Below are positions 1 to 64,000 of a stretch of 64,000 nucleotides of DNA, piece after piece. How positions within the stretch are numbered: the first letter of the stretch is position 1; every line of letters starts with the position of its first letter. Location: positions 107,064 to 171,063 of the forward strand of contig JAFWMN010000006.1 in the NCBI GenBank assembly GCA_017513865.1, given 5' to 3'. The notes beneath the pieces are model-generated. The model had not been told where the DNA came from. It searched no databases and saw only the letters and a list, made by a program, of their open reading frames with translations. The stretch is from Bacilli bacterium (GTDB lineage Bacteria; Bacillota_I; Bacilli_A; RF39; UBA660). Made by a program: the position numbers and the translations under genes.

Positions 1-1
1 T

Positions 2-370
2 TCTCATACCGAATCTGATACGAATGTAACTTACACAGTTACTTTAAGTAAGCCAACAGACTTTTATGAGTTTACTATCACTGTAATAAATGATGGTAAT
101 TTTAATGCTAATTTAACTTCAATCACAATGCCAACACTTACTGCACAACAAGCAAAATATTTGACTCATACTGTTACATATAACGGTACAGATTATAATT
201 CATCTCAAACAGGATTAGCTGTAGCTTTACCTTGTACTTCTGGTTCTAATACTAAAGTTTTAAAGGTTAGAGTTGCTTATATTCAACCTGAGTATAGTAC
301 AGATTTACCAACGACAGCTGATGCAACAGTAACTTTAAATGTAACTCTTCATTACGATCAAGTAGCTTAA
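2..370 (+). CDS. 3' fragment of a secreted beta-rich protein (gene starts upstream of the window). It shares a Thr/Asn-rich 'DFYEF...NDGNF' pattern with the 2605..4167 protein, making it a possible TasA-like / SipW-cognate fibre protein.
   Basis: The frame is open from base 2 to the stop at 368-370. The composition and motifs resemble the downstream secreted protein, and it lies immediately upstream of a SipW-type peptidase. Confidence 0.45.
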   Translation, partial: SHTESDTNVTYTVTLSKPTDFYEFTITVINDGNFNANLTSITMPTLTAQQAKYLTHTVTYNGTDYNSSQTGLAVALPCTSGSNTKVLKVRVAYIQPEYSTDLPTTADATVTLNVTLHYDQVA

Positions 371-418
371 TATGTATTCCATCATTTAGATGGAATATAC
401 CTGTTTAAAGGGGTATTT

Positions 419-1561
419 ATGAAAAAAAATGCGAAAATCATTTATGTTTGTGAGTTAATACTATTTATATATTTAATTTTGTTTGCAGTCTTAATAAATG
501 TAGTATCGCCATTTTTCAAAAGTGTTTCCACAATAGTGATTCTTGTGGTTATACTAGCTTTGTTAATTGCTTTTTTTGGCATGTCAAAAGATAAAAATTA
601 TTTACGAGGAACATCAACTAGGATTGTTATTTCTGGGTTGATGGCTTTCTTTCTAATAATATATGCATTAGGTATTCTTTTAGGATTTAATAAAGGTTAT
701 ATTTATAATGATTTTTTTACTTTAATGAAAAACATAATTTTTATTATATCTTTTACGGTGCTGCTTGAATTAATAAGATATTTAATTGCTAAAAATTCTT
801 TCCAGAATGGTAGATTAATCTTTGTTTTTACTATTTTAAGTGCAATTCTTAATATATTGTTAGAAATAAATATGGGCGTTTTGTCAACGTATGAGGATAA
901 ATTTATTTTTTTGAGTAAAGTTATTTTTCCAGTTGTTGCTGGAGAAGCTTTGTGCAGTTTTATGACAGTTAAAACCGGAATGTTACCTAGTGTTGTATAT
1001 AAATTGGTTATGAATTTATATATTTATATACTTCCTATTGTCCCTGATTTAGGAAATTATATTTATTCCGTTGCCAATATTCTTTTGCCATTTATTTTAT
1101 ATAGTGTTTTAAACAGAATAATTGTGCACTATGATAAAGAAAAAGAGCAATTAAGGAAGATTAATTTAGTTGTTTTTGTGACACCATTAATTATTCTGTT
1201 TTTGATTTTAGTAGCATTAGTTTCTGGAATTTTTAAGCATAGAATAATTGCGGTTGCTTCTAATTCAATGGCACCTACTTATAGACGTGGTGATGCTATT
1301 ATATATGAAAAAGTAGATGTATCAAATTTAGAGGTTGGTCATATATTAGCTTTTAAGCGTGAAGGCCTTATAATAACACATAGAATTACAAAAATATGGA
1401 AACAAAATGGCAAATATTACTTTACGACAAAAGGCGATAATAATAAAGACGTTGACCTTTATACGCCAAAAGAGGAAGATGTCTTAGGAAGGGTTAGGAT
1501 GACTTTTAAATTAATAGGTTATCCAACAGTTATAATAAATGAATATTTTGGAAAGGAGTAG
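419..1561 (+). CDS. Archaeal/ER-type signal peptidase I (SipW-like, S26B) fused to a ~250-aa N-terminal polytopic membrane domain.
   Basis: The C-terminal ~120 aa carry SNSMAPT (catalytic Ser), ITHRI (His) and TKGDNN motifs typical of SipW/Sec11. The N-terminal part has about 7 hydrophobic segments. An RBS (AAAGGGG) precedes the ATG. Confidence 0.75.
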   Translation: MKKNAKIIYVCELILFIYLILFAVLINVVSPFFKSVSTIVILVVILALLIAFFGMSKDKNYLRGTSTRIVISGLMAFFLIIYALGILLGFNKGYIYNDFFTLMKNIIFIISFTVLLELIRYLIAKNSFQNGRLIFVFTILSAILNILLEINMGVLSTYEDKFIFLSKVIFPVVAGEALCSFMTVKTGMLPSVVYKLVMNLYIYILPIVPDLGNYIYSVANILLPFILYSVLNRIIVHYDKEKEQLRKINLVVFVTPLIILFLILVALVSGIFKHRIIAVASNSMAPTYRRGDAIIYEKVDVSNLEVGHILAFKREGLIITHRITKIWKQNGKYYFTTKGDNNKDVDLYTPKEEDVLGRVRMTFKLIGYPTVIINEYFGKE

Positions 1562-1565
1562 AAAA

Positions 1566-2618
1566 ATGAAAAAGTATAAGAAAAATAAGTTTTTTCAGTT
1601 TTTATTTCCTTTCCTTTTTATTATTGGAATAGTTCTTATTTTTTTTGGTTTTAGAGATCGAAAAATTGTTAATTTAAAGTATAAGGAAGATAATAAAATA
1701 AATTATAATGTTTACTTGAAACCTAATAGTTTTTTTGAAACGCCATATTTAGGTGAAAACGAAACATATATTGCTAGTTTGATAGATTATATTGATATTC
1801 ATTTTCATTATGGAATAAAATATGATAAAAAGTTTTCGGGAAACTATAAATATAAATTTGTTGCTTTAGTTAGCGCTAATAAAAAGGATGCGAATGGTCA
1901 TTATTGGCAAAGAGAATATAGTTTAACCGAATTTAAAAATTTTGATGCAGTTAATCAGGATTTTATAGCAATAGATGATAATGTTAAAGTTAATTATGGT
2001 ACCTATAATGATATTTTAAATCAATTTAGAAAAGAATATGATTTAACAACACAGGGCGAATTAAAGGTTATTATGAAGGTAAGCAGTAATTTTCAGTTTA
2101 CCGAAGTAAAAGAACCTGTAGTTGATGATAGTGAACTTAATTTATCAATTCCTTTGTTAGAACAAGCTTTAGAACTTTCTATTAATAAAGATGTTTCTAA
2201 TGAAAGAGATGTTGTTTCTTTTGTTGAGAGTGATAATAGTATAATTTATATTTTCTTTAAAATTTTTGGAACACTTTGTATTATTTTTTCAATTGCTGGC
2301 TTTGTGATTGCTACAAAACGAGCAAGGGAATTTAGAAAAAACAATTTATATACGTTAAAACTTGATAAAATACTTAAAAATTATGACAGCATTATTGCTA
2401 ACGTTAAAAAGCTTCCTAATATTAATGATTTCAAAAAAATAGAAATAAGTAGTTTTGAAGAACTTTTAGATGTTTATAGTGAAGTTAGAATGCCTATAAA
2501 TTGTTATCAAGGAAGATATGAAGCTCTATTTGTTATAATTAATAATGAAACAGCATGGGTTTATAAGTTAAAAAGGTCAGACTTATCTGAAAAGAGTGAT
2601 GACTATGAAGAAGATTAA
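1566..2618 (+). CDS. Bitopic membrane protein of unknown function, with one N-terminal and one C-proximal TM helix, encoded in the SipW operon.
   Basis: An AAGGAG RBS precedes ATG 1566 (the track ORF starts earlier, at 1539). Hydrophobic segments are FFQFLFPFLFIIGIVLIFFGF and IYIFFKIFGTLCIIFSIAGFVIA. It overlaps neighbouring genes in an operon-like way. Confidence 0.55.
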   Translation: MKKYKKNKFFQFLFPFLFIIGIVLIFFGFRDRKIVNLKYKEDNKINYNVYLKPNSFFETPYLGENETYIASLIDYIDIHFHYGIKYDKKFSGNYKYKFVALVSANKKDANGHYWQREYSLTEFKNFDAVNQDFIAIDDNVKVNYGTYNDILNQFRKEYDLTTQGELKVIMKVSSNFQFTEVKEPVVDDSELNLSIPLLEQALELSINKDVSNERDVVSFVESDNSIIYIFFKIFGTLCIIFSIAGFVIATKRAREFRKNNLYTLKLDKILKNYDSIIANVKKLPNINDFKKIEISSFEELLDVYSEVRMPINCYQGRYEALFVIINNETAWVYKLKRSDLSEKSDDYEED

Positions 2619-4167
2619 TTTAAATAATAACGATAAAAAAACTATTAATATTAATATCTTTATGTCGGTATTGATTGTAGTTGTTTTATCGTTTATTTCT
2701 GTTGGTTATGCTTTATATGGTCAGAATTTAAGTGTGAGTGGTAATATTGGTTTTGGTCTTCAGGGTAAGATTGCGATTACTGATGTTACATTAACTTCAT
2801 CTACTAATGTTAGATCCGACAGTATTCCATCTTTTACTGATGATAGTGTTGATTTTAATTTGACTTTTGAAAAAGCTGCTGGGTCAACAGATCCGAATTA
2901 TCAAGCTGTTTATGAAATTACGATTTCTAATGGAACATTTTATGATTTTGAGTTTAATTTAGCAAATTTTCAACCAATTATAACTAATTCTCATGGAATA
3001 AATGTTGATCCGTCTTTTTTATCTACTTCTTTAAGTGGTATAAATATAGGGGATATGATTCCAGCTGGCGAGGATGTTACTTTTACGTTAACTTTGGATT
3101 TTAGACCTGACGTTGACGATACTTATTCAGTTAGTGGTGATATGGAAACAGAATTGGTAGAAGAACCACATGGGAGTCTTTTGGGATCTGTCCCTGAAGG
3201 TGCGCAAGGTGATTTGAAGGAAAGTTTAGGACATGATATTGTCTCTTTTACAGTAACAGTTATTAATTCTTATCAATCAAGTAGAACTTTTAATATAAAT
3301 ATTGCTGATACGAGTCATTTTCAACTTACTAATTCTGATGGTACTCCGCTTAGCAATTTTACAATAGCTGGAGGAACAACAGACACATATACTTTTTATG
3401 TAAAAAGAGTTAATGGAGCAATTTTTGGTGCTTCAAGTTTTACTACAGGAATTTATCTTTCTTATTCAGAAAATTCTAATGTTCCTTGCGGGAACGTTAC
3501 TTTATTTGTTGATGAAACGCAAATTGATGATACGACACCGCCACAAATTAGTGATGTAACTGCTGTTCAAAATAATGCGACAAGTAGCACAACTACTAAT
3601 GATACGGTTGGTTCAGTTACTGTTTCTTGGAACGGCGAAGATGCTGAATCTGGTGTAAAAAAATACTATGTTATTGTGAAAAATTCTAAAGGATCAACAA
3701 CTTATGAAACTACTGACAACACACCATCTTTAACGATTACGGGGCTTATAGATGACAGTAATTATACTTTCAAGGTTTATGGTGAAAACAACGATAATTA
3801 TAAGCCTAACGATAGTCAAATAGCTGTTGATTCGACAAGTCCTGGTGTTTGTTCAATGTCTACATCTTATTCATTTGATTGGCGTTATACAGTTGCATTT
3901 TCATCTGACACAAATAATATGCGAGAGTTGTCAACCACAGCCGTAAATAGGGGATATAATTATACCGTGACTCTTAGAGCCTCTAATAATTATAATCTTC
4001 CTAGTTCATTAAATTATGTAACCATGGGTGGGAATGAAATTACTTCTACCTCTGGGACAGAAACAGGACATTATAAATATACAAGTAGTAGTGGTTCTTT
4101 TAATGTATATGGGGTTACCGGAGATATTGTATTAAAACTAACACCAACAAGAAGTGGTGGATGTTAA
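2605..4167 (+). CDS. Large secreted protein with a SipW-cognate-type N-terminal signal (…ISVGYALYGQNLSVSG…) and a fibronectin-III-like domain. It is a likely SipW substrate or fibre/adhesin subunit.
   Basis: A basic N-terminus and hydrophobic core are followed by a GYAxY motif resembling the TasA/camelysin class. The FN3-like segment is 'TPPQISDVTAV…VSWNGEDAESGVKKYYVIV…YTFKVYGEN'. The start could be 2596 (GTG), 2599 or 2605; the AAAGAG RBS favours 2605. Confidence 0.6.
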   Translation: MKKINLNNNDKKTININIFMSVLIVVVLSFISVGYALYGQNLSVSGNIGFGLQGKIAITDVTLTSSTNVRSDSIPSFTDDSVDFNLTFEKAAGSTDPNYQAVYEITISNGTFYDFEFNLANFQPIITNSHGINVDPSFLSTSLSGINIGDMIPAGEDVTFTLTLDFRPDVDDTYSVSGDMETELVEEPHGSLLGSVPEGAQGDLKESLGHDIVSFTVTVINSYQSSRTFNINIADTSHFQLTNSDGTPLSNFTIAGGTTDTYTFYVKRVNGAIFGASSFTTGIYLSYSENSNVPCGNVTLFVDETQIDDTTPPQISDVTAVQNNATSSTTTNDTVGSVTVSWNGEDAESGVKKYYVIVKNSKGSTTYETTDNTPSLTITGLIDDSNYTFKVYGENNDNYKPNDSQIAVDSTSPGVCSMSTSYSFDWRYTVAFSSDTNNMRELSTTAVNRGYNYTVTLRASNNYNLPSSLNYVTMGGNEITSTSGTETGHYKYTSSSGSFNVYGVTGDIVLKLTPTRSGGC

Positions 4168-4170
4168 TAA

Positions 4171-4204
4171 AAAACACTATTTTTTATGAATAGTGTTTTT
4201 TTTG
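4171..4204. terminator. Bidirectional rho-independent terminator between convergent genes.
   Basis: A perfect 11-bp inverted repeat (AAAACACTATT / AATAGTGTTTT) has a 7-nt loop and is followed by a T-run on the + strand. Confidence 0.7.
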
Positions 4205-4860
4205 ATAATCAAAAAAGCGGTTATTATAAAGAGAAAAATGCTGAAAATTTGGTTTGAGGAAATTAGTTCTTTAATGTGACTATACCTTAGAAAATCTAAG
4301 GAAAATTTAAGGATTGAAATTAAAAGTAAAGTGATATAAGAAATGTTTTTTTTGTTTTTATTTGTATTACAGAAAAGAAATAAAATAAAAAACACGAAAG
4401 ATTCTAATAACTGTATAGGGAATAGGGGAATATTTAATCCATGAGGGTAGGTTACGCTGAAAGGTCCATTATAAGGAATGCCATAGCAACACCCAACAAA
4501 GAAACATCCAATTTTTCCGAAACTATAAATTAGCGGTAATGAAAGAATTGAATATTTAATTATTTTTTTATCTGAAGGATATATTTTTTCATAAATTAAT
4601 GGTGATATGATAACGCCAATTAATCCCCCATATGAGGAAAGACCACATTCTAAAAACTTTTTTTTAAAGCCACTTACAACAAATGTGTAAGTTTTAGCAG
4701 ACATATAGGTGATAATGAAGAAAAATATAAAAAAAAGTAGGATATTTTTTTTAGATATATTTTCATTTTTTAATGCAAAAAAAACATATAAAATGCCAAT
4801 GATAATTGAGAAGGACATCATTATTTTATAAAAAGGAAAAGGAATGTTATGTATTATCAT
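4177..4860 (-). CDS. Lgt-family (prolipoprotein diacylglyceryl transferase-like) paralog, short at 227 aa, with a mutated signature motif.
   Basis: It is colinear with Lgt (YGGLIGVII aligns with Lgt HGGLIGAIL). The Lgt signature GRWGNFxNxEAHG is replaced by GKIGCFFVGCCYG, and the C-terminal region is truncated. Confidence 0.55.
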   Translation of the reverse strand: MIIHNIPFPFYKIMMSFSIIIGILYVFFALKNENISKKNILLFFIFFFIITYMSAKTYTFVVSGFKKKFLECGLSSYGGLIGVIISPLIYEKIYPSDKKIIKYSILSLPLIYSFGKIGCFFVGCCYGIPYNGPFSVTYPHGLNIPLFPIQLLESFVFFILFLFCNTNKNKKNISYITLLLISILKFSLDFLRYSHIKELISSNQIFSIFLFIITAFLIIKKNTIHKK

Positions 4861-5084
4861 ATTATCACAACTTTCTATTTGAATTTTATCACAAAACTAG
4901 TTTTAAAACAATATTTTTTTATAATCGAAATTATGTGTATATTAGCTTTTTTGTGTTGATTATAAGTGATTATTTGTATGTAAACTAGGTTCTTGGAAAT
5001 ATAATTAATATATGATAAAATAGTTTTGATAAAAAGAGGCTATAATGAAATCTGGTTTACCAGTGTAAGAAAAGGAGATATGCG

Positions 5085-5924
5085 ATGATTTTACTAGATG
5101 GAAAAAAAGCCAAAATAAGTATTTTAGAAGAATTAAAAGAGGAATTATTAAAACTTGATAGAAAATTAGGATTAACAGTTATTCAAATTGGTGATGATCC
5201 AGCCAGTAATGTTTATGTTAGGAATAAAGGTAAGATGGCCAATGATTTAAATTATAATTTTAATCATATAAAACTTGATGATGACATTACTGAAGAAGAT
5301 GTTTTAGCTTTAATTAATAAGCTTAATAATGATGATATAGTTGATGGTATTTTAGTTCAAATGCCTATACCTAAACATTTAGATTCTAAAAAAATTCAAA
5401 ACGCGATTATTTCAGTTAAAGATGTTGATGGACTTACTGATATAAATATGGGTAAGCTTGCTCATGGAGTTGATTCTTTGGTCCCTTGTACAGCCATGGG
5501 AATATTAGATTTATTAAGATTTTATAACTTAGATGTTGAAAAGAAAAATGTAGCTATTGTTGGTAGAAGTGATTTAGTTGGTAAACCTTTAGCAAGTTTA
5601 TTAACTAATAATAATGCGACTGTGACTTTGTGTCATTCTAAAACAGAAAATTTAAAAGAACATACGAAACTTGCGGACATATTAGTAGTAGCCGTTGGAA
5701 AACCTAAGTTAATAAATGATGAATATATAAAAGAAGGAGCAGTAGTAGTCGATGTTGGAATAAACCGTACGGAAGAAGGTTTGGTTGGTGATGTCGATTT
5801 CGAAAAGGTTAAAGATAAGGTAAGTTATATTACACCAGTTCCTGGAGGAGTTGGTCAAATGACTGTAGCGGAACTTGGTAAAAACACATATAAAGCACAT
5901 GTGCTTAGAAAGAAAAAATTGTAG
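5085..5924 (+). CDS. folD: Bifunctional methylenetetrahydrofolate dehydrogenase / methenyl-THF cyclohydrolase.
   Basis: Hallmark FolD motifs are present: IQIGDDPASNVYVRNK, VPCTAMGILDLL, GRSDLVGKPLASLL, VGINR, PVPGGVGQMTVAEL. Confidence 0.92.
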   Translation: MILLDGKKAKISILEELKEELLKLDRKLGLTVIQIGDDPASNVYVRNKGKMANDLNYNFNHIKLDDDITEEDVLALINKLNNDDIVDGILVQMPIPKHLDSKKIQNAIISVKDVDGLTDINMGKLAHGVDSLVPCTAMGILDLLRFYNLDVEKKNVAIVGRSDLVGKPLASLLTNNNATVTLCHSKTENLKEHTKLADILVVAVGKPKLINDEYIKEGAVVVDVGINRTEEGLVGDVDFEKVKDKVSYITPVPGGVGQMTVAELGKNTYKAHVLRKKKL

Positions 5925-10679: not shown

Positions 10680-11483
10680 ATGAAATCAGTTATTGATTTG
10701 GGTTTTGTTTCTATTCATATTTATTCTTTATGTATTTTAATAGGTGTTTTACTATCTTTTTATTTAATTTTAAAAGAGAGCGAAAAGCATGGCTTTGATA
10801 AAGAAAAAATTTCAGATTTGCTTTTTTATACGATTATTTTTGGAATAATAGGTGCGAGATTATATTATTGTTTATTTAATTTAGATTATTATTTATCTAA
10901 TCCTTTTTCTGTTTTGAAAATATGGGAAGGGGGATTAGCTATACATGGAGGGATTATTGCTGGATTAATTACTATTTTTGTATATGCCAAAAGACATAAA
11001 TTAAACGTTCTTTGGCTTTTAGATTTTATAGTAGTTGGTTTAATAATTGCTCAAGCTATTGGTAGATGGGGAAATTTCTTTAATGGTGAGGCTCATGGGT
11101 CACTTACGACATTGTCTCATTTAAAAGGAATGAATTTACCTAGTTTTATTATTAAAGGAATGAAAATTGATGGAGTTTATTATATCCCAACCTTTTTATA
11201 TGAGTCTTTATGGTGTTTACTAGGGTTTATAATAATGATTTTAGTAAGACATAAAAAGAATATAAAAATAGGATATTTAACTGGTTTTTATTTTATTTGG
11301 TATTCTTTAGAAAGATTTTTTGTTGAAGGAATGCGTACAGATAGTTTAATGTTAGGTTTATTTAAAATCGCGCAAATAATCTCTATTATTATGTTTATAT
11401 GTGGTATTGTTATATTTATATATAGTTTTATTAATTCTTCAAACTATAATAAAAAACTTGAAAGGAATGATAAAAATGACTAA
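10680..11483 (+). CDS. lgt: Prolipoprotein diacylglyceryl transferase.
   Basis: 'LKIWEGGLAIHGGIIAGL' and the Lgt signature 'GRWGNFFNGEAHG' are present, along with 'PTFLYESLW…EGMRTDSLM'. Confidence 0.92.
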   Translation: MKSVIDLGFVSIHIYSLCILIGVLLSFYLILKESEKHGFDKEKISDLLFYTIIFGIIGARLYYCLFNLDYYLSNPFSVLKIWEGGLAIHGGIIAGLITIFVYAKRHKLNVLWLLDFIVVGLIIAQAIGRWGNFFNGEAHGSLTTLSHLKGMNLPSFIIKGMKIDGVYYIPTFLYESLWCLLGFIIMILVRHKKNIKIGYLTGFYFIWYSLERFFVEGMRTDSLMLGLFKIAQIISIIMFICGIVIFIYSFINSSNYNKKLERNDKND

Positions 11484-24730: not shown

Positions 24731-24814
24731 TTTTTAAAAAAATGTTTGCTACAATATATTCGCTTATGAATTTCTATGGCTTGATTTTTAAGTCATGGCG
24801 GAAGGAGAGATAAT

Positions 24815-58565: not shown

Positions 58566-58641
58566 AGGGGAATAGTTCAGCTGGTAGAACGTCGGTCTCC
58601 AAAACCGAATGTCGTGGGTTCAAATCCTGCTTCCCCTGCCA
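58566..58641 (+). tRNA. tRNA-Trp (anticodon CCA).
   Basis: The cloverleaf has acceptor AGGGGAA/TTCCCCT, an anticodon loop CTCCAAA, a T-loop TTCAAAT and an encoded 3' CCA. It is 76 nt long. Confidence 0.9.
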
Positions 58642-63424: not shown

Positions 63425-64000
63425 TTACTCAAATGGTTTATATATTTTAGCGATAGCTTCGGCAACTTTTATACCATCCATGGCAGCACTCATAATTCCG
63501 CCAGCATATCCGGCTCCTTCACCGCAAGGGTATATGCCTTTAATATTACTTATTAAATTATCGTCTCTTATTATTTTTATAGGTGATGACGTTCTGCTTT
63601 CAACAGCTGATAATATGGCATCATCTGAAGCAAAACCATTTATTTTTTTATCGAAGTGTAATATAGCTTCTTTTAACGATGTGTTTATATATTTTGGAAA
63701 TATATTATTTAAATTAGCGAAAGTATAATTTCCTTTAAATATAGGAGCTATATTTCCCAATTTGTTACTTATTTTATTATCTATAAAATCTTTAAATAAC
63801 TGTGTTGGTATTTTCCCTTTTCCCTCATTATACGTTGCTTTTTCTAATTTTCTTTGAAATTTTGCACCATCTAGTGGATTATAACCGAAATCATCAGGCG
63901 TGATAGTTACGATAATTGCGCTGTTGGCATTTTCTTCATCCCTTTTATGGTTACTCATTCCATTTATGGAAAGCATACCTTCTTCTGATGAAGAATTTAC
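63425..64000 (-). CDS. C-terminal part of an FAD-dependent oxidoreductase (HI0933/YhiN-like). The gene continues beyond the window end.
   Basis: 'YPCGEGAGYAGGIMSAAMDGIKVAEAI' is typical of the C-terminus of this flavoprotein family. The frame is open to position 64000. Confidence 0.6.
   Translation of the reverse strand, partial: VNSSSEEGMLSINGMSNHKRDEENANSAIIVTITPDDFGYNPLDGAKFQRKLEKATYNEGKGKIPTQLFKDFIDNKISNKLGNIAPIFKGNYTFANLNNIFPKYINTSLKEAILHFDKKINGFASDDAILSAVESRTSSPIKIIRDDNLISNIKGIYPCGEGAGYAGGIMSAAMDGIKVAEAIAKIYKPFE

Follow-up and report, generated by a model that had tools for sequence, protein, structure and literature searches.

Introduction

Prolipoprotein diacylglyceryl transferase (Lgt) is regarded as one near-universal enzyme with a housekeeping role and as a target for antibiotics, and divergent copies of it are usually annotated identically. 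The 64-kb stretch of DNA analysed here, which is referred to below as the window (64,000 nucleotides (nt), positions 107,064 to 171,063 of contig JAFWMN010000006.1), contains two genes of the Lgt family. The gene at 10680–11483 on the plus strand is a canonical housekeeping lgt. The gene at 4177–4860 on the minus strand, 6 kb away, encodes a 227-amino-acid paralog, which an earlier sequence-only reading regarded as either an inactive pseudo-enzyme or a neofunctionalised transferase because of a cysteine-rich motif in place of the Lgt signature. The paralog gene is intact and kept by selection; its product belongs to the Lgt family but is not the housekeeping Lgt. We tentatively propose, giving it slightly less than an even chance, that it is a specialised, active Lgt-type transferase of a selectively maintained subtype, termed 'mini-Lgt', with a putative substrate of its own.

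In the Lgt of E. coli, the variants R143A/E/K, R239A/E/H/K/Q, H103A/N/Q/R/Y and E151A/Q do not complement (PMC4728403). In the first of the two phosphatidylglycerol (PG) sites of this enzyme, E151 forms a hydrogen bond with the head group and is described as a 'substrate-selection filter', and in the second site PG is bound by R143 (PMC4728403). Legood et al. (2026, PMC13251419) found Y26, H103, R143, N146, G154 and R239 to be absolutely required in E. coli, and E151A to be tolerated in a delta-lpp background. The specificity for the protein substrate is set by arm-2, H103 and the head, and tyrosine is the norm at the His103 position in Firmicutes (PMC13251419).

Divergent Lgt copies, variants with N146C/E151C and subgroups lacking R143 and R239 have already been published by the same authors (PMC13251419). 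The Lgt of Leptospira interrogans complements E. coli poorly or weakly, and a disulfide has been proposed for its Cys residues. The second Lgt homologue of M. smegmatis, MSMEG_5408, carries Y26H and N146C and is presumed to have low activity. The subgroup without R143 and R239 occurs in Deinococci, Acidimicrobiales, Anaerolineales and Acidobacteriales as well as Myxococcales, and a different lipid substrate or mechanism was suggested for it. In the Bacillus cereus group, a plasmid-borne second lgt is linked to conjugation lipoproteins, and two lgt copies are present in about 1,300 of 12,956 genomes (all PMC13251419).

A second kind of described system concerns the genes next to the paralog. 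Loci for donor-strand fibres of the AbpX/TasA-like type encode a ten-transmembrane signal peptidase I (SPase I), the DUF5305 protein as its accessory subunit, and minor or tip subunits, and SLH or LPXTG anchors are often added in the bacterial loci (preprint 10.64898/2026.01.04.697558). The words 'lgt', 'lipoprotein' and 'diacylglyceryl' each occur zero times in this preprint.

Results and Discussion

The open reading frame (ORF) of the paralog was read directly from the window. Its translation contains SLPLIYSFGKIGCFFVGCCYGIPYNGP and is an exact match to the NCBI protein MBR3198764.1, which is encoded on a 190-kb contig of a 'Bacilli bacterium' metagenome-assembled genome (MAG). The Pfam profile PF01790 matches the product with 86.7 bits (cut-off 24.9, E=2e-24) over profile positions 7–239 of 240. 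This is far beyond chance, and the gene is a genuine lgt paralog as had been supposed. The NCBIfam equivalog level is not reached, with 47.3 bits against a cut-off of 118.9 for TIGR00544 and 60.2 bits against 334 for NF000778. The product of the canonical gene, 267 amino acids with the signature GRWGNFFNGEAHG and containing AIGRWGNFFNGEAHG, scores 254.7 bits with PF01790, passes TIGR00544 with 210 bits and matches the E. coli Lgt structure 5AZB at E=9e-25, which confirms its earlier assignment as the authentic lgt.

The paralog keeps the seven-helix core of Lgt. The AlphaFold2 model, built on 112 homologues (pLDDT 91.3, pTM 0.84), has helices as expected for the Lgt core, and its sole significant match in the PDB is E. 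coli Lgt 5AZB (Foldseek: E=1.6e-6, probability 1.0, TM-score 0.76). The paralog thus shares Pfam family, seven-transmembrane (TM) fold and topology with the E. coli enzyme (PDB 5AZB/5AZC). The sequence-only reading held that the C-terminal third of the protein is lacking. This is incorrect: the profile match extends to position 239 of 240, the multiple alignment with the E. coli, Leptospira and canonical window Lgts is colinear to the last residues, the TM6 and TM7 motifs are present and the model matches 5AZB. The TM6 motif, located by profile and multiple alignments, reads KFSLDFLR (K185–R192, codons at 4285–4308 on the minus strand) versus RIIVEFFR in E. coli, and the TM7 motif NQIFS versus GQILS. 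The paralog is shorter by about 40–60 residues owing to deletions in arm-2, the head, the TM6–7 loop (L6-7) and the tail (227 amino acids compared with 291 in E. coli). The head domain comprises about 47 amino acids in E. coli (E151–P197) and about 25 in the paralog (C124–P148), where the model shows only short strands at residues 123–148. Unlike in canonical Lgt, little of arm-2 and of the N-terminal arm is left according to the alignment.

The residues of the active site were assigned by pairwise, profile and multiple alignments to E. coli Lgt. The canonical signature G-R-x-G-N-x-x-N-x-E-x-x-G corresponds to GKIGCFFVGCCYG in the paralog (G115–G127, codons at 4480–4518 on the minus strand). 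The E. coli residues Y26, G104, G150, G154 and R246 are conserved as Y11, G78, G123, G127 and R192, the residues P197, Q199 and E202 as P148, Q150 and E153, and G142 and G145 also have identical equivalents. The differences are H103 to Y77, R143 to K116, N146 to C119, E151 to C124, L152 to C125, R239 to K185 and E243 to D189. The replacement of the Asn and the Glu by Cys, which had been noticed from the sequence, is therefore correct for N146 and E151. Both arginines of canonical Lgt are replaced by lysines, K116 and K185, which are invariant across the subfamily, as are Y11 and G127. The paralog had also been described as colinear with Lgt through an HGGLIG block. The colinearity was borne out, but the block reads YGGLIG (Y77-G78-G79), so that a Tyr followed by Gly-Gly stands at the place of His103, where monoderms may carry Tyr or Trp. 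As judged from the alignments, the polar and charged residues that line the central cavity are either the same or exchanged for similar ones. The positive-inside rule places the signature of the paralog outside the membrane.

Cys residues at positions 146 and 151 occur naturally in the family. The Lgt of L. interrogans, translated from the synthetic gene of Legood et al., reads GRLGCWVSGDGCYG where the paralog reads GKIGCFFVGCCYG, and both have a Cys at 146 and at least one within 151–153. Proteins of 256–294 amino acids with the signature GR[LV]GCFFVGCCYG that keep R143, R239, E243 and R246 are encoded at loci of Neomarinimicrobiota (L011–L016), Defluviitaleaceae (L009) and Clostridia (L010). 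In Neomarinimicrobiota this gene lies amid housekeeping genes of the trkA/trkH/lepA type and may be the sole lgt. The Leptospira Lgt and these proteins share with the paralog the Cys at 146, the Cys within 151–153 and the lack of conservation of His103. They differ from it in the retention of R143/R239/E243 (R/R/E), in their length of 256–318 amino acids and in their larger heads and arms, whereas the paralog has Lys, Lys and Asp (K/K/D) at these positions, is minimal and stands alongside a canonical Lgt. Because natural Lgt variants with Cys at 146 and 151 are documented, a finding which the sequence-only reading had itself named as refuting, the argument from these residues to inactivity or new function is weakened. 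The choice between pseudo-enzyme and neofunctionalised transferase was a reasonable one, but the substitution of Asn and Glu by Cys is largely removed as a reason for it. Together with the Tyr normal for Firmicutes, the natural Cys variants indicate that the Cys motif and Y77 alone imply no loss or change of function. What distinguishes the paralog is the double Arg-to-Lys exchange with E243D, the minimal arms and head and the presence of a canonical Lgt in the same window.

The other divergent members could be compared by description. MSMEG_5408 is likewise an extra family member beside a major Lgt and has N146C, but it has lost Y26, which is retained in the paralog as the invariant Y11. The subgroup without R143 and R239 resembles the paralog in that both essential arginines are gone, while the phyla differ. 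The plasmid-borne lgt of the B. cereus group is also an extra copy genetically tied to particular exported proteins; it is described as ordinary, whereas the paralog has a remodelled site and is linked to a fibre cassette or a Zn-ribbon protein. In the literature search, no description turned up of the minimal K/K/D subtype, of its extent among Bacilli of the gut and rumen or of the two neighbourhoods that are conserved around it.

The three Cys residues raise the question of a switched chemistry. They may replace the hydrogen-bond network of N146 and E151 structurally, through a disulfide or tight packing, or they may bind a metal. In the more radical case, they would form a catalytic or metal (e.g. 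Zn) centre without direct diacylglyceryl transfer, with thioester-mediated acyl transfer (Lnt-like), thiol-disulfide exchange with partner tails or metal-activated thiol alkylation as the options. Alkyl transfer by zinc thiolates and acyl-enzymes formed on Cys are both well known, the invariant C119, C124 and C125 stand where N146 and E151 act as ligands of the PG head group, and the Zn-ribbon partner protein described below has two to three conserved Cys residues on the same side of the membrane. However, the same GCFFVGCCYG is found in Lgts that are otherwise canonical at R143, R239 and E243 and lie in housekeeping contexts, and a related motif is present in Leptospira. A structural role for the Cys triad is simpler in view of these R/R/E Lgts and of the disulfide proposed for Leptospira, and we consider a switch in chemistry improbable.

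The paralog is not an isolated copy. A search of 5.8 billion proteins yielded 399 homologues as clusters at 90% identity. The top 120 clusters are 219–262 amino acids long and 48–96% identical, and most come from metagenomes of the gut or rumen; the small number with a name bear the title 'MAG: prolipoprotein diacylglyceryl transferase' and are assigned to a Bacilli bacterium or an Oscillospiraceae bacterium. In an exhaustive search against representatives at 50% identity, 4,040 matches had E<1e-3 and 781 had E<1e-10, and C-x3-G-C-C-x-G was present in 142 of the 147 best of these matches. The 112-sequence alignment contains 22 invariant positions, including cavity residues and the whole Cys triad: Y11, Y25, K56, G78, L108, Y112, K116, C119, G123, C124, C125, G127, Y138, P148, Q150, E153, F161, K185, R192, N203, Q204 and S207. 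Among all Cys-signature sequences gathered, about 230 have K/K/D(E) versus about 18 with R/R/E. R143K, R239K and E243D therefore co-vary, and such a concerted shift is typical of a remodelled site and not of a dead one. On these sequence features a 'mini-Lgt' subtype can be delimited, with about 225 amino acids, C-x3-G-C-C-x-G, K/K/D and minimal arms and head. The possibility of a strain-specific or decaying gene, which had been named as an alternative, is ruled out by the intact ORF, the 399 clusters and the invariant motif. The dN/dS ratio between the paralog and its 96%-identical copy at locus L006 is 0.33, a weak figure that is based on 16 differences only.

The genomic context of the subfamily was studied at 100 loci, and context classes were assigned from the 91 with a callable Lgt-like ORF. 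The commonest arrangement, found by the classifier at 31 of the 91 and by manual inspection at further loci, has the gene for a Zn-ribbon (ZnRib) protein of about 130–190 amino acids directly upstream on the same strand. Examples are L001 (7449–7943), L003 (7541–7996) and L058 (1010–1456), along with about 30 other loci. The gap between the two genes is 0–8 nt in most of the 31 extracted pairs. The ZnRib family is uncharacterised and comprises 702 matches. Its members consist of an N-terminal zinc ribbon, recognised by PF13240 only, and three TM helices with an invariant cytoplasmic RVK[YC]P loop. A Cys is present at the outer end of the last helix in 94% and near the very C-terminus in 87% of the proteins, and 92 of the 120 top ZnRib clusters have a Cys among the last six residues. 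About half of the tails end in ...C[YF][VI]TC..MDTSGC[GSN], and about 30% end in ...MV[TA]C[VA]G[LI]LA[SA]C-x3-5, which is a canonical lipobox (LLASC, AIASC, LLAAC). The 64-kb window contains no ZnRib homologue.

The short gap to the upstream ZnRib gene would also fit an obligate complex with an inactive pseudo-enzyme, that is, an Lgt fold that serves as a lipid- or protein-binding scaffold and docks, for example, the Cys-rich ZnRib tail or the fibre machinery. The paralog deviates at four positions where substitutions inactivate E. coli Lgt (H103Y, R143K, E151 and R239K), and the M. smegmatis paralog with N146C is the one presumed to be low in activity. Against this, the replaced residues are invariant and coordinated in their change instead of drifting, the rest of the cavity network is kept (Y26, E202, R246 and the Q/S motif of TM7), the exchange of His103 for Tyr is normal in Firmicutes, and Lgts with a Cys signature can be active. 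It is therefore doubtful that the paralog is such a scaffold, and we rate this low.

In the window, the paralog adjoins a different partner. The paralog gene is convergent with a four-gene operon on the plus strand, as stated earlier for the SipW locus, with the two stop codons (4167 and 4177) only 9 nt apart and under a shared hairpin. This hairpin, an A-tract/stem/T-tract structure at 4160–4210 identified as an inverted repeat and by RNA folding (-17 kcal/mol, z=-5.16), spans both stop codons and covers the last nine or so codons of the paralog. It is a probable bidirectional terminator common to the paralog and the last gene of the operon.

The operon encodes a fibre cassette. The first gene is cut at the window edge, and the 3′ part at 1–370 encodes a small fibre subunit of about 186 amino acids; the 186-aa protein of locus L004 is 63% identical to the window over 20–361 (tblastn). 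The second gene (419–1561) encodes a 380-amino-acid SPase I of the SipW/archaeal type, which is fused to an N-terminal multi-TM domain and has at least seven hydrophobic segments; TIGR02228 matches it over residues 249–376 with 89.9 bits (cut-off 51.85). The third (1539–2618) encodes a DUF5305 protein (PF17231, E=3.4e-14). The fourth (2596–4167) encodes a 523-amino-acid secreted subunit with an fn3 domain (Pfam), a SipW-type signal peptide and a pilin-like N-terminal domain, whose first 190 or so residues are homologous to the 186-aa small subunit (E=6e-6) and whose tail reads ...TPTRSGGC (4144–4167). Successive ORFs overlap by 23 nt at 1539–1561 and 2596–2618, which suggests translational coupling. 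The cassette (1–4167) shares the architecture of the TasA/AbpX-type donor-strand fibre loci; it differs from them in that no SLH or LPXTG anchor is seen and that an Lgt-like gene adjoins it. No lipobox was found in the other cassette proteins. The window and L004 share a Cys in TM1 of the SPase (IIYVCE), but this residue is located at the inner face of the membrane, and a Cys in TM2 of the DUF5305 protein is not conserved.

The linkage to the cassette is kept in relatives. It was counted at those loci where a homologue of the fn3 subunit of 512–546 amino acids and the sequence downstream of it were readable, and the Lgt-like gene adjoins the cassette in convergent orientation in 15 of 15 such loci (the window, L004/5, L006, L019, L022, L023, L027, L037, L049, L052, L061, L095, L097, L098 and L099). 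The co-location with SipW-type loci in other genomes, which the sequence-only reading had proposed to check, is thereby confirmed. The junction between the Lgt-like and fn3 genes is kept down to 40% identity of the fn3 protein (L099). Each locus has a different gene on the far side of the Lgt-like gene (folD, yhcG-like, serine recombinase, murD-like, NUDIX, HAD and others), and the upstream flank of the cassette is also variable. By its conserved adjacency, the Lgt-like gene is a candidate member of the fibre cassette. The 182-amino-acid call at L098 only seems truncated and is intact with an upstream non-ATG start. At L100, which has a 798-amino-acid fn3 variant, no Lgt-like gene is present within the 770 nt that remain. 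The longest contig is common to the fn3 cluster and the top-120 Lgt-like cluster in the case of 17 fn3 clusters. In a neighbour-joining tree, the cassette-linked loci form one clade inside the ZnRib-linked radiation, interrupted only by contigs that are too short. The fixed place of the Lgt-like gene beside the fibre cassette suggests a specialised job for its product.

Several observations on individual loci accompany these data. A serine-recombinase-like gene of about 500 codons abuts the Lgt-like gene at L019 (8338–9828, minus strand) and L022 (4474–5979, minus strand), and phage-type genes (ORF6N, Bro-N) flank the cassette of L004; these neighbours hint at a mobile five-gene block. Locus L006 (CAZKKR010000037.1), an 8.9-kb contig, has 96–98% protein identity to the window from 200 to 5400, including cassette, Lgt-like gene and folD. 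It is filed under a MAG of 'uncultured Muribaculaceae' (Bacteroidota), whereas the exact match to the window protein is recorded for a 'Bacilli bacterium'; this is probably a binning error.

Another alternative is that the paralog is simply a redundant Lgt isoenzyme that uses phosphatidylglycerol to lipidate ordinary lipobox prolipoproteins, in line with its NCBI annotation as prolipoprotein diacylglyceryl transferase. The Pfam LGT threshold is passed, second lgt copies occur in the genome survey cited above, the His103 position is normally Tyr in Lgts of Firmicutes, and the Leptospira Lgt with Cys at 146 and 151–153 partly works in E. coli. Since the second type of ZnRib tail has the form of a canonical lipobox, acceptors may still be recognised in the usual way. 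Such an enzyme would not be expected to be tightly linked to particular partner genes, though, and R143K and R239K each inactivate E. coli Lgt, the specificity-setting arms and head are nearly deleted and the equivalog score is less than half of the cut-off. An isoenzyme of this kind is unlikely.

The reading of the paralog as an active and specialised transferase draws on the retained fold and cavity, the invariant and concerted replacements, the functioning relatives with a Cys signature and the dedicated partner genes. The specialisation is argued from R143K/R239K, the minimal arms and head, the equivalog score below the cut-off and the conserved partners. According to this reading, the mini-Lgt would still bind an anionic glycerolipid in its cavity and would move the diacylglyceryl, or a related lipid group, to the thiol of a Cys that enters laterally at the interface of the outer leaflet. 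With its head-group filter changed (E151C, N146C, R to K) and the specificity elements of arms and head lost, the enzyme would have a different donor and/or a narrow set of acceptors, which would not be the general lipobox proteome. Judging from the neighbourhood, the candidate acceptor in most relatives would be the Cys-rich ZnRib tail (...LLA[SA]C-x3-5 or ...DTSGC-x). In the clade of the window, where no ZnRib gene is adjacent, the candidate would be the large fibre subunit, which often ends in ...TRSGGC.

A tail of the form TR-x(2-5)-GG-x-C-x(0-3) is present in about 38 of 68 homologous fn3 clusters, and the others stop right after the last beta-strand. Cys-tailed loci include the window, L004, L019, L022, L023, L027, L037, L049 and L061 (TRSGGC, GGGC, SGCG, GGGCGG and so on). 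The fn3 tail resembles the ...TSGC-x with which the ZnRib partners of the closest sister enzymes end, and by the positive-inside rule the fn3 tail, the ZnRib tail and the signature of the enzyme are all outside the membrane. Similar Cys tails on the same side as the signature suggest that mini-Lgt might lipidate C-terminal cysteines. In its strong form, this idea is an 'inverted lipobox', in which mini-Lgt S-lipidates the extreme C-terminal Cys of its partners, the fn3 ...TRSGGC or the ZnRib tails. If true, the large fibre subunit would acquire a C-terminal lipid anchor replacing the SLH or LPXTG of related TasA/AbpX-like loci, and in the sister clades the Zn-ribbon membrane protein would be lipidated at its ...LLASC-xxxx or ...DTSGC-x tail; if signal peptidase II also cut there, a diacylglyceryl-Cys lipopeptide of 2–6 residues could be released. 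In the literature search, neither an association of Lgt with SipW nor diacylglyceryl lipidation at a C-terminus had a precedent. The DAG-RiPP work describes only short peptides after an N-terminal lipobox, which are lipidated by the housekeeping pathway (PMC13056109).

A number of points weigh against these proposals. The exchange of Arg for Lys at 143 and at 239 abolishes the activity of E. coli Lgt (PMC4728403), and by analogy the paralog may have lost catalysis. Convergent gene pairs about 10–60 nt apart can stay adjacent for mechanical reasons, and in a human-gut group (L028–L046) neither partner is adjacent to the Lgt-like gene. The co-variation of ZnRib tail type and enzyme clade is expected from shared descent alone. 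About 26 of the 68 fn3 clusters have no Cys tail, and L095, L097, L098 and L099, which are among the tail-less loci, keep an intact Lgt-like neighbour. Since these loci keep the gene, the Cys tail of the fn3 subunit is not a necessary acceptor, and the tail as a necessary substrate was downgraded. Because of the tail-less loci, of co-inheritance and of the mechanical difficulty of separating convergent genes, the inverted lipobox is kept as a long shot.

The remaining features of the window are briefly described. The paralog and folD (5085–5924) are divergent, and the paralog's own promoter is expected in the intergenic region between them (4861–5084); the minus strand has promoter-like sites there at 4959–4930 and 4883–4856, with no enrichment relative to shuffled sequences. 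Nearly all genes of the window lie on the plus strand; the minus strand carries only a few, among them the Lgt-like gene. No signal of foreign DNA was detected, as the GC content is uniform along the window (24–34%). An ORF of 183 amino acids at 63425–63976 (minus strand) shows a weak match to the multi-TM part of the SPase (tblastn E=0.008, residues 187–328) and no match in NCBIfam. The only Rfam matches in the window are an L31-Firmicutes ribosomal-protein leader at 24774–24807 (plus strand; 35 bits, barely over the gathering score) and one tRNA at 58566–58638 (plus strand).

Conclusion

A large subfamily of gut and rumen 'Bacilli' proteins has a minimal Lgt core, Lys in place of both essential Arg residues and an invariant Cys triad, and it coexists with a canonical Lgt and is genetically locked to specific partners. 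To a specialist the paralog itself is unsurprising. It advises caution in transferring the label 'prolipoprotein diacylglyceryl transferase' to divergent copies. If the hypothesis of the partner tails is false, the protein would be an ordinary divergent paralog; if it is true, it would mean a new lipid-anchoring of surface fibres, or small lipopeptides, in gut commensals. The partner associations make the substrate specificity directly testable, and mini-Lgt offers a concrete handle on how the donor and acceptor specificity of Lgt is re-tuned.

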